A stretch of 64,000 nucleotides of DNA from Escherichia coli (GCF_003018235.1 NZ_CP027437.1), one strand, 5' to 3'. Numbered from the stretch's first letter, positions 56,101 through 56,232 are shown. Translations and numbers: made by a program. The notes: generated by a model not told the origin, from the letters alone.

Positions 56101-56201
56101 CATTACCGAACACTAAAACTTGACGCACATCACAACATTAGAACGAACAGTTCATGAACCAATAAGCGTAACATCGAGTGATTTATGGACAGCGTTTAAC
56201 A

Positions 56202-56232
56202 CAGTTATGAACCAAAACTGAGTTCATAACTG
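56202..56232. promoter_or_regulatory. Perfect inverted repeat CAGTTATGAAC-N9-GTTCATAACTG in a non-coding stretch (a related GTTCATGAAC palindrome lies at 56150-56159)
   Basis: Seen directly in the sequence; function unknown (operator or degraded element end). Confidence 0.3.

Follow-up and report, generated by a model that had tools for sequence, protein, structure and literature searches.

Two classes of described elements were closest to the locus studied here. The SEs (strand-biased circularizing integrative elements), according to the accessible part of the report on them (PMC10214605), contain four genes, namely intA (an ordinary tyrosine recombinase), tfp (a recombinase fold without RHRY), intB (large, with RHRY) and srap (a small auxiliary gene), together with imperfect inverted repeats of 13–19 bp and a 6-bp spacer, and show a preference for marine gamma-proteobacteria. 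The GInts start with the ginABCD operon at the 5' end, carry cargo that varies and finish in a short, AT-rich 3' end in which some stretches are conserved; their authors found no common feature in the 3' ends (PMC5385486). GInts with defence systems were reported in E. coli, in which the hipA-ydeT interval is defence hotspot 20 (Hochhauser et al., PMC10121019). Among the Xer sites, those of the cer/psi type contain a XerC/XerD core of 28–30 bp, and ~180 bp located before the core bind PepA and ArgR or ArcA. The layout of arm-type sites in lambda attP is the familiar pattern of heterobivalent integrases.

In our study, the window (the whole stretch of Escherichia coli DNA that was analysed, 64,000 nucleotides) was found to contain lsr, an autotransporter, hipBA, an oxidoreductase cluster ending in a carboxymuconolactone-decarboxylase (CMD) gene, a yneL AraC-family remnant and the ydeT/QRS fimbrial operon, in that order. 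The locus is the hipBA-dif-yneL-ydeT region of E. coli. The whole stretch was held by ~460 of the 5426 complete genomes; most other genomes matched only from ~56332 on, and K-12 from 56560. Island-free strains contained an intact dif, GGTGCGCATAATGTATATTATGTTAAAT, exactly where the non-coding block that follows the CMD gene ends in the window, and the same sequence was present after hipA, at the same place, in K-12, O157, strain 1190 and VTB96935v. We take this 28-mer to be the chromosome dimer-resolution site dif. Its identity also rests on the Xer literature (PMC2731167, PMC5357621). No canonical dif within 3 mismatches was found anywhere in the 64-kb window. The features of the locus were as follows:

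52130–52143, plus strand: XerC-binding arm of dif and the first 3 nt of its central region, GGTGCGCATAATGT, parted from the rest of dif by insertion
52144–52447, plus strand: remnant (~300 nt) of a filamentous-phage-like, Xer-exploiting element (IMEX) inside dif, with a GC-rich hairpin at 52160–52198
52448–52475, plus strand: AGTGCGTATAA-GATATA-TTATGTTAAAT, a dif-like hybrid site whose XerD arm is perfect
52475–52486, plus strand: left terminus of the island, motif C, TATGGTGGGTTT, assigned by comparison with strain 1190, VTB96935v and the E. hormaechei plasmid
52487–56100, plus strand: surviving cargo, an amidohydrolase fragment first and then four genes
52846–53418, plus strand: NAD(P)H oxidoreductase (cargo)
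53421–54440, plus strand: aldo/keto reductase (cargo)
54556–55281, plus strand: quinol monooxygenase (cargo)
55297–56100, plus strand: CMD family gene (cargo)
56091–56338, plus strand: conserved non-coding right-end block, ~250 nt, with a ragged cargo-side edge and a fixed outer edge
56147–56163, no strand assigned: repeat 1, ACAGTTCATGAACCAAT, which includes the GTTCATGAAC palindrome; 56151–56163 invariant in three lineages
56200–56234, no strand assigned: repeats 2 and 3, inverted GTTCATAACTGT with 13-bp arms and a 9-nt loop; invariant runs at 56202–56217 and 56221–56229
56319–56331, plus strand: terminal inverted repeat C', CAAACCCAGAATA; invariant run at 56323–56338
56332–56338, plus strand: 6-bp crossover spacer GTTAAA and a T, which duplicate the outer end of the XerD arm and form the island's right junction
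56503–56769, plus strand: yneL-type AraC-family HTH remnant, in the chromosomal flank outside the element

The sequence at 52144–52447 was 82% identical to the 3' end of tandem units located at dif in E. coli cM8a, which encode a II/X-family replication protein and a ssDNA-binding protein. The hybrid site next to it is the sole candidate for dimer resolution in the window. Of the left terminus of the island, just 12 nt were kept, against 45 nt at the left end of the strain 1190 type of island. The deletion inward of 52486 took away the GTTCATGAG site at +20, the recombinase genes and, of what strain 1190 contains, the LysR gene along with four genes of the cargo. The island of the window is a relic with oxidoreductase cargo, devoid of recombinase genes and truncated at the left end. 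The original prediction had offered a degraded mobile-element end as one reading of the palindromes; a mobile-element end it is, but the end itself is intact and well conserved, and the decay lies elsewhere, in the lost recombinase genes and left arm.

The two palindromes were located as first described. GTTCATGAAC was read directly from the window at 56150–56159, and 56202–56232 was found to be CAGTTATGAAC-N9-GTTCATAACTG. The second palindrome was longer than first noted, with perfect 13-nt arms, CACAGTTATGAAC (56200–56212) and GTTCATAACTGTG (56222–56234), separated by a loop of 9 nt. They had been said to share the half-site GTTCATnAAC; the core GTTCATRA is truly common to both, whereas the exact form is not, because the second arm reads GTTCATAAC and is one base shorter. 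Also common to both was a direct repeat, ACAGTT(C)ATGAACCAA, present with a 1-nt indel at 56147–56162 and 56201–56215. The half-site of the 56200–56234 hairpin was GTTCATAA.

The window contained 56 perfect 10-nt palindromes against 64.5 ± 8.5 in shuffles, and GTTCATGAAC taken alone is at chance level. GTTCATNAAC was seen 3 times where 0.68 would be expected. Only two loci in the 64-kb window had a perfect inverted repeat with 13-nt or longer arms and a loop of up to 20 nt, and in shuffles 0.4 such repeats were counted even when arms down to 11 nt were admitted. Of the six GTTCATRA matches in the window, four were clustered inside 80 nt, 5.1 being expected over the whole 64 kb. The long inverted repeat and the clustering of GTTCATRA therefore exceed chance. 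The hairpin folded with −23.7 kcal/mol as RNA (z = −7.1 against shuffles) and with −13.1 kcal/mol as DNA (z = −6.2 against shuffles). The gap was non-coding, as claimed earlier: the substitutions among lineages in the right-end block showed no codon periodicity (34/26/26) and no ORF was found in the block, and on these grounds a small protein-coding gene was rejected. The Rfam scan of 55800–57300 gave best scores far under the gathering thresholds, which is noise only, and no terminator-like or promoter-like site was found in 56100–56340 of the window. An intrinsic terminator or a known RNA family was also rejected, there being no stem with a U-tract and no Rfam match above threshold.

The 231 nt from the CMD stop codon to 56331 were found to have full-length relatives, at 71–76% identity, in plasmids of Klebsiella, E. 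coli and Enterobacter, in a Chimaeribacter plasmid and at the same spot in other E. coli chromosomes. The neighbours of the block differed and were CMD/oxidoreductase genes, a restriction-enzyme/TIGR02391/Hachiman set or Avs1. Depending on the relative, the homology began at 56034, 56072 or 56091, and the Chimaeribacter copy, near which no recombinase operon was found, retained a remnant of the CMD 3' end. The outer edge was sharp at ...CCCAGAATAGTTAAAT in every context (at least 8 contexts), the block ending with CAAACCCAGAATA-GTTAAA-T. The right block was present in 556 genomes, and a scan of contigs with the terminal 24-mer found only three more species. In Pantoea, the block copy was interrupted by an IS3 element.

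The conservation of the block was measured over four block lineages. Among three of them, 44 of the 52 motif columns were invariant against 77 of 150 columns in the rest of the block (Fisher p = 1.2e-5), and with the fourth lineage (E. coli CD45) the counts were 37/52 and 58/150, respectively (p = 4.5e-5). Outside the motifs and the terminus, the CD45 block was only 52–65% identical to the other three lineages. Judged from these alignments, the palindromes are the most conserved part of the block, the terminus aside. Chance frequency with no positional conservation, the outcome that was to speak against the original prediction, is thus not what the four lineages displayed.

The full oxidoreductase island of strain 1190 and the defence island of VTB96935v contained an intact dif followed directly by ATGGTGGGTTTG.TCTTAAGTTCATG... 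at the left. At the right junction both islands ended in the block, as ...AATAGTTAAAT and then the flank; both ends are therefore common to the two islands. Wherever the left junction was readable, the left end adjoined the XerD arm. This was the case at the E. coli dif (strain 1190 and VTB96935v), at the Xer site GGTGCGCTTAA-TGCTAT-TTATGTTAAAT of an E. hormaechei plasmid, at a dif-like site of an Aliivibrio plasmid, beside tandem filamentous prophages, at a site of an IncFIB plasmid (a family 35% identical) and, in one V. parahaemolyticus strain, at dif-like sites of its two chromosomes. For the relatives in Aliivibrio and on the IncFIB plasmid, a search for the right end located none. The attL contained a complete dif, with TTATG as the inner bases of the XerD arm, whereas attR was AATAGTTAAAT, with AATAG at these positions; the exchange therefore falls within GTTAAA, which forms the outer end of the XerD arm, rather than in the central region, the place of XerCD cleavage. 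TTATGTTAAAT of attL and AATAGTTAAAT of attR were identical at 7 of 11 positions. When joined, the ends read CAAACCCAGAATA-GTTAAA-TATGGTGGGTTTG, that is, 13-bp imperfect inverted repeats with a 6-bp spacer, 11 of the 13 positions of CAAACCCAGAATA agreeing with the reverse-complemented left terminus, TATGGTGGGTTTG.

The intact relatives contained three tyrosine-recombinase-like genes and a small gene at the left end, and the VTB96935v-type islands start with four genes encoding 507, 556, 845 and 167 aa. The layout of operon, cargo and 3' end was found in E. coli VTB96935v, in E. hormaechei and K. pneumoniae plasmids, in Aliivibrio and in V. parahaemolyticus. The first two proteins (507 and 556 aa) gave weak but consistent integrase signals (PHROG integrase, 3.5e-9; NCBIfam integrase_1, 2.6e-24, under the curated cut-off), and the Vibrio orthologue of the second has Pfam Phage_integrase on record. 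When the motifs were read by eye, the 507-aa protein contained R249, H389-x-x-R392 and Y461, and the 556-aa protein kept R264, R379 and Y411. In the 845-aa protein, R252 (GFRFQE), H509-x-x-R512 (HVPRH) and Y544 (HYQH) were invariant in 44 homologues; no family match was found for this protein, and at the level of motifs the invariant R, H-x-x-R and Y are the signature of a tyrosine recombinase. Sequence searches of the PDB with the three large proteins gave nothing useful. Among the 5426 complete E. coli genomes, 162 contained the operon, which occupied 108 places on chromosomes and 61 on plasmids. The CD45 operon was 99.8% identical over a 4-kb query to that of the E. hormaechei plasmid, located at 46321–52507 of NZ_CP043384.1, and the large recombinase of the V. 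parahaemolyticus element was 48% identical. The cargo seen in the family comprised Hachiman, Avs1, Gabija-like and restriction genes as well as metabolic operons.

The TTCATGA motif recurred at both ends of the elements, in members ranging from E. coli to Vibrio parahaemolyticus. The left-end copies were located at +20, +97/98 and +131 whether the element was of the E. coli or of the Vibrio type, although the intervening sequence differs between the two. Aliivibrio and the 35%-identity family likewise had the +20 copy. The 22.6-kb plasmid element of E. hormaechei contained 20 copies of GTTCAT against 13 ± 3.6 expected, of which 7 were within the first 140 and last 215 nt. In the 13.1-kb element of V. 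parahaemolyticus, TTCATGA gave 12 matches, both strands counted, where 2.2 were expected over the whole element, and 7 of the 12 were within the terminal ~270 nt. One of these was GTTCATGAACCA, located 165 nt from the right end and the same as in repeat 1 of the window.

Set beside the described systems, the element was filed, from published descriptions and motif reading, as a variant of the SE/GInt/Tn554-type class rather than under either named group. It was filed as a variant rather than a member because GinC of the GInts is without the first catalytic Arg, whereas in the third protein here this Arg was invariant (the GFRFQE box-I-like motif in 44 homologues, as a motif only), the reference proteins being compared by description. 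The likeness to SEs includes a putatively equivalent four-gene set at one end, fitting in number, order and sizes (507, 556, 845 and 167 aa) and made up of an ordinary tyrosine recombinase, a second protein of recombinase fold, a large recombinase and a small auxiliary protein. It also includes the 13-bp imperfect inverted repeats (11/13) that the circular joint contains around a 6-bp spacer, site specificity, the lack of transfer genes and abundance in Vibrionaceae (86 protein clusters), Shewanella and Aeromonas. Unlike in SEs, the second protein keeps R...R...Y, which, as the residues were read by eye, makes its assignment as a catalytically dead Tfp uncertain. The accessible part of the report on SEs mentions no subterminal TTCATGA arrays, and no XerD-arm target was found in the SE termini given in the accessible part of its published supplements (PMC10214605).

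[quoted passage not shown] However, dif is not among the known targets of GInts, which comprise an ABC-transporter gene, ssb, a ribonucleotide-reductase gene and HU-2. The literature search found no published link between GInts or SEs and dif, and in the accessible parts of the supplements to the GInt and SE lists neither protein accessions of the family nor dif-type att sequences were found. Tn554 (TnpA, TnpB, TnpC), as far as the accessible parts of the two reports describe it, also has one preferred site and a 6-bp core carried between junctions (PMC10214605, PMC5385486); set beside the family by description, it differs in its occurrence in Firmicutes, in having no third recombinase-like gene and in its target. 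The IMEXs (CTX-phi, VGJ-phi, TLC-phi, the gonococcal genetic island and EludIMEX/EcloIMEX) resemble the family in their integration at dif, their tandem stacking and the one functional dif that is kept. They encode no recombinase and cross over in the central region of dif, whereas this family has its own recombinases and a junction at the outer end of the XerD arm. The insertion sequences of the IS1202 family found at dif/pdif likewise use their own enzyme with Xer sites as a landmark (PMC10132070), but they are DDE elements inserted 5 bp from the XerC side, without cargo and without a recombinase trio.

The palindromes lie as repeats in the subterminal part of the right end (attR arm) of an integrative element, and we consider it probable that they serve as arm-type sites for a protein of the element. 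From their location, conservation, junctions and motif distribution we infer protein binding and a role in recombination. Intact elements encode the three tyrosine-recombinase-like proteins and a small coiled-coil protein at the left end, followed by variable cargo, and lie directly behind the XerD-binding arm, whether this is in dif or in a Xer site of a plasmid. They cross over within this arm, in the 6 bp GTTAAA, and the first T of the element rebuilds the arm, so that dif stays intact. Circularisation would join the right block and the left end into an attachment site of ~320 bp, with CAAACCCAGAATA-GTTAAA-TATGGTGGGTTTG as its core and copies of [G/C]TTCAT[G/A]A on both flanks. These copies, both palindromes included, are putative binding sites for one element protein, and their role may be like that of the Int arm sites of lambda attP, in assembling or orienting the synapses between attL and attR and between attS and attB. 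The resemblance to lambda attP is an analogy of layout only, namely short motif repeats on both sides of a core, over ~250–320 bp, at fixed positions and in mixed orientation; the proteins are unrelated in sequence, and the proteins of this family gave no evidence of a separate arm-binding domain.

The arm-type reading of [G/C]TTCAT[G/A]A is the simplest. Several observations count against it. The 3' ends of GInts had no common feature according to their authors (PMC5385486), the block is represented by four lineages only, and the right ends of two family members, those of Aliivibrio and the IncFIB plasmid, were not located. The complementarity of the outer stem was kept through different sequences in VTB96935v (8 bp, a bulge and 5 bp) and in CD45 (19 bp with a 3-nt loop), and a selected structure would explain this pattern no less well than a protein site. 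Moreover, the V. parahaemolyticus relative was devoid of the hairpin and contained TTCATGA copies only, and the first motif of CD45 was not palindromic (GCTCATGAAC).

A regulatory use of the same motifs is unlikely in our estimate, although we give it some weight because the VTB96935v-type terminus has a promoter-like site reading toward the palindromes and the cargo. The motifs would then be operators for a regulator encoded by the element, for example one of the conserved HTH proteins downstream of the recombinase operon or the 167-aa protein; an inward promoter in the right end would drive the minus-strand cargo and, in the circle, transcription would run across the joint into the recombinase operon, directly upstream of whose first gene the block is then located. 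The VTB96935v-type blocks contained TTGAGG-18-TATAAT (10/12) on the minus strand, overlapping the terminal repeat, and all cargo genes of this type are on the minus strand. This promoter is a consensus match only, with a frequency not above that of shuffles. By alignment reading, the −10 was present in four of five lineages and lost in the window, where no minus-strand gene follows. A GTTCAT copy was also found in a conserved internal non-coding region upstream of an HTH gene. However, the motifs were kept beside three unrelated cargo sets, plus-strand cargo among them, the fixed left-end copies (+20, +97/98 and +131) in one orientation point to an architectural array rather than an operator, and no regulator was identified. 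We know of no operator consensus, among those of HipB, LexA, ArgR, Cra, MetR and others, to which the palindromes bear a convincing likeness.

Selection of the hairpin itself as a nucleic-acid structure is rather improbable. As ssDNA, the hairpin would act in a strand-biased circular intermediate, as a priming site or as a fold recognised by the recombinase like integron attC, and SEs were proposed to move via one specific strand (PMC10214605); as an RNA stem, it would insulate or terminate transcription at the boundary of cargo and end. A strong hairpin was found in all four lineages, with DNA z-scores from −2.6 to −8.6, and the pairing of the outer stem was kept through differing sequences and registers, but no stem pair was changed on both sides. 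The A-to-G change in Chimaeribacter leads to G.T in the plus strand only. The reading is opposed by the lack of a U-tract after the stem, the empty terminator scan and the lack of an Rfam match. The loop sequence, needless for a pure stem, was also conserved, and the Vibrio relative kept the TTCATGA copies while this hairpin was missing.

It is very improbable that the block is a cer/psi-like Xer site, with a degenerate 28-bp core and ~200 bp of accessory sequence in which the big palindrome, ~105 bp from the crossover, replaces the ArgR or ArcA site, and that the island is a true IMEX moved by XerCD. The element is located at dif, genuine IMEX remnants adjoin it, and the size of the block and the distance of the palindrome resemble cer, with its 180-bp accessory sequences and 30-bp core (PMC5357621). 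This reading was rejected on the junction sequences and the element-encoded recombinases: the exchange lies in GTTAAA at the outer arm end, with a perfect dif (TTATG) in attL and AATAG in attR, the putative XerC arm ATATCCCTCAA agreed at only 4 of 11 positions and was accompanied by no central-region homology, and the relatives carry their own recombinases. In our own comparison, the palindrome was also a poor match to the ARG-box consensus.

That the palindromes arose by chance, 10-nt palindromes being common, or are leftover operators of yneL, whose AraC-family remnant lies 270 nt off, or of the LysR regulator in the strain 1190 island is hardly credible, since the motifs are the best-conserved columns of a block common to plasmids and other species, yneL and its flank occur without the motifs, and the LysR gene is 7 kb off at the opposite end and missing from other cargo types that keep the block. 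The earlier proposal of dimeric transcription-factor operators, implicitly tied to the AraC remnant, thus found no support, as the palindromes are within the inserted island, whose boundary is at 56338, and the yneL remnant and flank occur without them in thousands of island-free E. coli. A Tn7-like or IS200/605-like end was likewise rejected because TGT...ACA is missing from the termini, ~100 nt separate the hairpin from the end and transposase genes of these kinds are absent.

Returning to the arm-site reading, the palindromes in the window are best seen as relic recombination signals. The sites are probably no longer used, because no recombinase genes are present and the left arm is down to 12 nt. 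Beyond the window, we advance as possible, a little short of probable, that the elements form a widespread unnamed family of Enterobacterales plasmids and chromosomes and of Vibrionaceae, which has its own tyrosine-recombinase trio, lands on the XerD arm of any Xer site, cuts yet rebuilds the arm, and has an att site of ~320 bp organised by an array of TTCATGA arm sites. It would target dif on chromosomes, multimer-resolution sites on plasmids and, in Vibrio, the dif-like sites of both chromosomes. During strand-biased circle formation, ssDNA may be where the conserved hairpin acts. If this is true, a second class of elements, independent of Xer, would have dif as a hotspot, the hipA-ydeT defence hotspot of E. 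coli would owe part of its occupancy to them, and some 'IMEX' named from flanking dif-like repeats may have been moved by their own recombinases.

For the window, the reading settles the orphan palindromes as relic recombination signals of a decayed island and not regulators of the fimbrial/AraC locus. For the family, both ends, the 6-bp crossover and a candidate protein-binding motif are defined for a cargo-carrying element that would shuttle between plasmid Xer sites and the chromosomal dif. This would give a mechanistic reason for the hipA-ydeT defence hotspot (hotspot 20, PMC10121019), and it offers a testable answer to how elements of the GInt/SE type may recognise their own 3' ends.

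The canonical dif, the chromosomal Xer dimer-resolution site, was not matched in the window by a pattern search with up to 3 mismatches. In our study, we found that dif was interrupted at 52130-52475 by a remnant of approximately 300 nt of a filamentous-phage-like IMEX (integrative mobile element exploiting host Xer recombinases), which showed 82% identity to the end of the units tandemly repeated at dif in E. coli cM8a. The hybrid site remaining in this stretch, AGTGCGTATAAGATATATTATGTTAAAT, is likely to be the working dimer-resolution site. The split-dif arrangement was found contiguous in none of the complete E. 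coli genomes of the collection.

The island was compared with that of E. coli strain 1190, which contains the full oxidoreductase island at dif (locus L006). The window island was found to be devoid of approximately 3.3 kb present in strain 1190, as read from window 52476-52845 against L006 18877-22000. The missing parts were:

the left arm past 12 nt
a divergent LysR regulator gene
a hypothetical gene
a glutamine-amidotransferase-like gene
an aldo/keto reductase gene
part of an amidohydrolase pseudogene

On the hipBA side, the ECSE_1600-family autotransporter ORF (46651-50202) encoded 1183 aa, whereas the gene in strain 1190 was 5421 nt long; the window copy is probably truncated or frameshifted, like its K-12 counterpart.

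Directly beyond the dif/element end, the hexamer at 56339-56344 was hypervariable among E. coli lineages, with the variants GGAATT, TTAATT, CGTATC, and CATGTC, and the flank past it showed approximately 93–97% identity between lineages. Successive rounds of insertion and excision here could have left these variants as footprints, or the hexamer could simply be a mutational hot spot.

The surroundings of the element were also studied in Vibrionaceae and Klebsiella. In both chromosomal copies of V. parahaemolyticus (CP196076.1 and CP196075.1; loci L026/L027), approximately 125 nt past the element right end (...CCCAGAATAGTTAAAT) were shared and terminated in AAAATAGCTAATAT; this stretch resembles what would remain of the right end of a related element that had been stacked at dif earlier. 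The opposite side was occupied, on chromosome 1, by a filamentous prophage (RstB, Rep_trans). In the Aliivibrio wodanis plasmid pAWOD_1 (L020/L021), 4–5 tandem filamentous-phage-like units, each containing a II/X replication protein, SSB, and HTH, adjoined the element at a plasmid dif-like site, and the entire region was present in duplicate in the record. In K. pneumoniae pKpN01-CTX (L007 5309-6149), a GNAT/DUF1778 toxin-antitoxin pair was located between the element right end and the Xer-like site AGTACCGATAA-TGCGTT-TTATGTTAAAT, which suggests that modules were stacked at this plasmid Xer site. In K. grimontii (L014 ~3015-3035), a perfect LexA-box-like sequence, CTGTATATATATACAG, was found directly outside the element right end.

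A conserved accessory module followed the recombinase operon in two element families with only 35% identity. It was located at:

L015 682-2275
L022 24507-26100
L022 36198-37188

and contained:

a minus-strand HTH gene
a 186-aa gene
a conserved non-coding stretch of approximately 300 nt
a 98-aa HTH gene

Two copies were present in an IncFIB plasmid. The module is a candidate for a regulatory module of the element.
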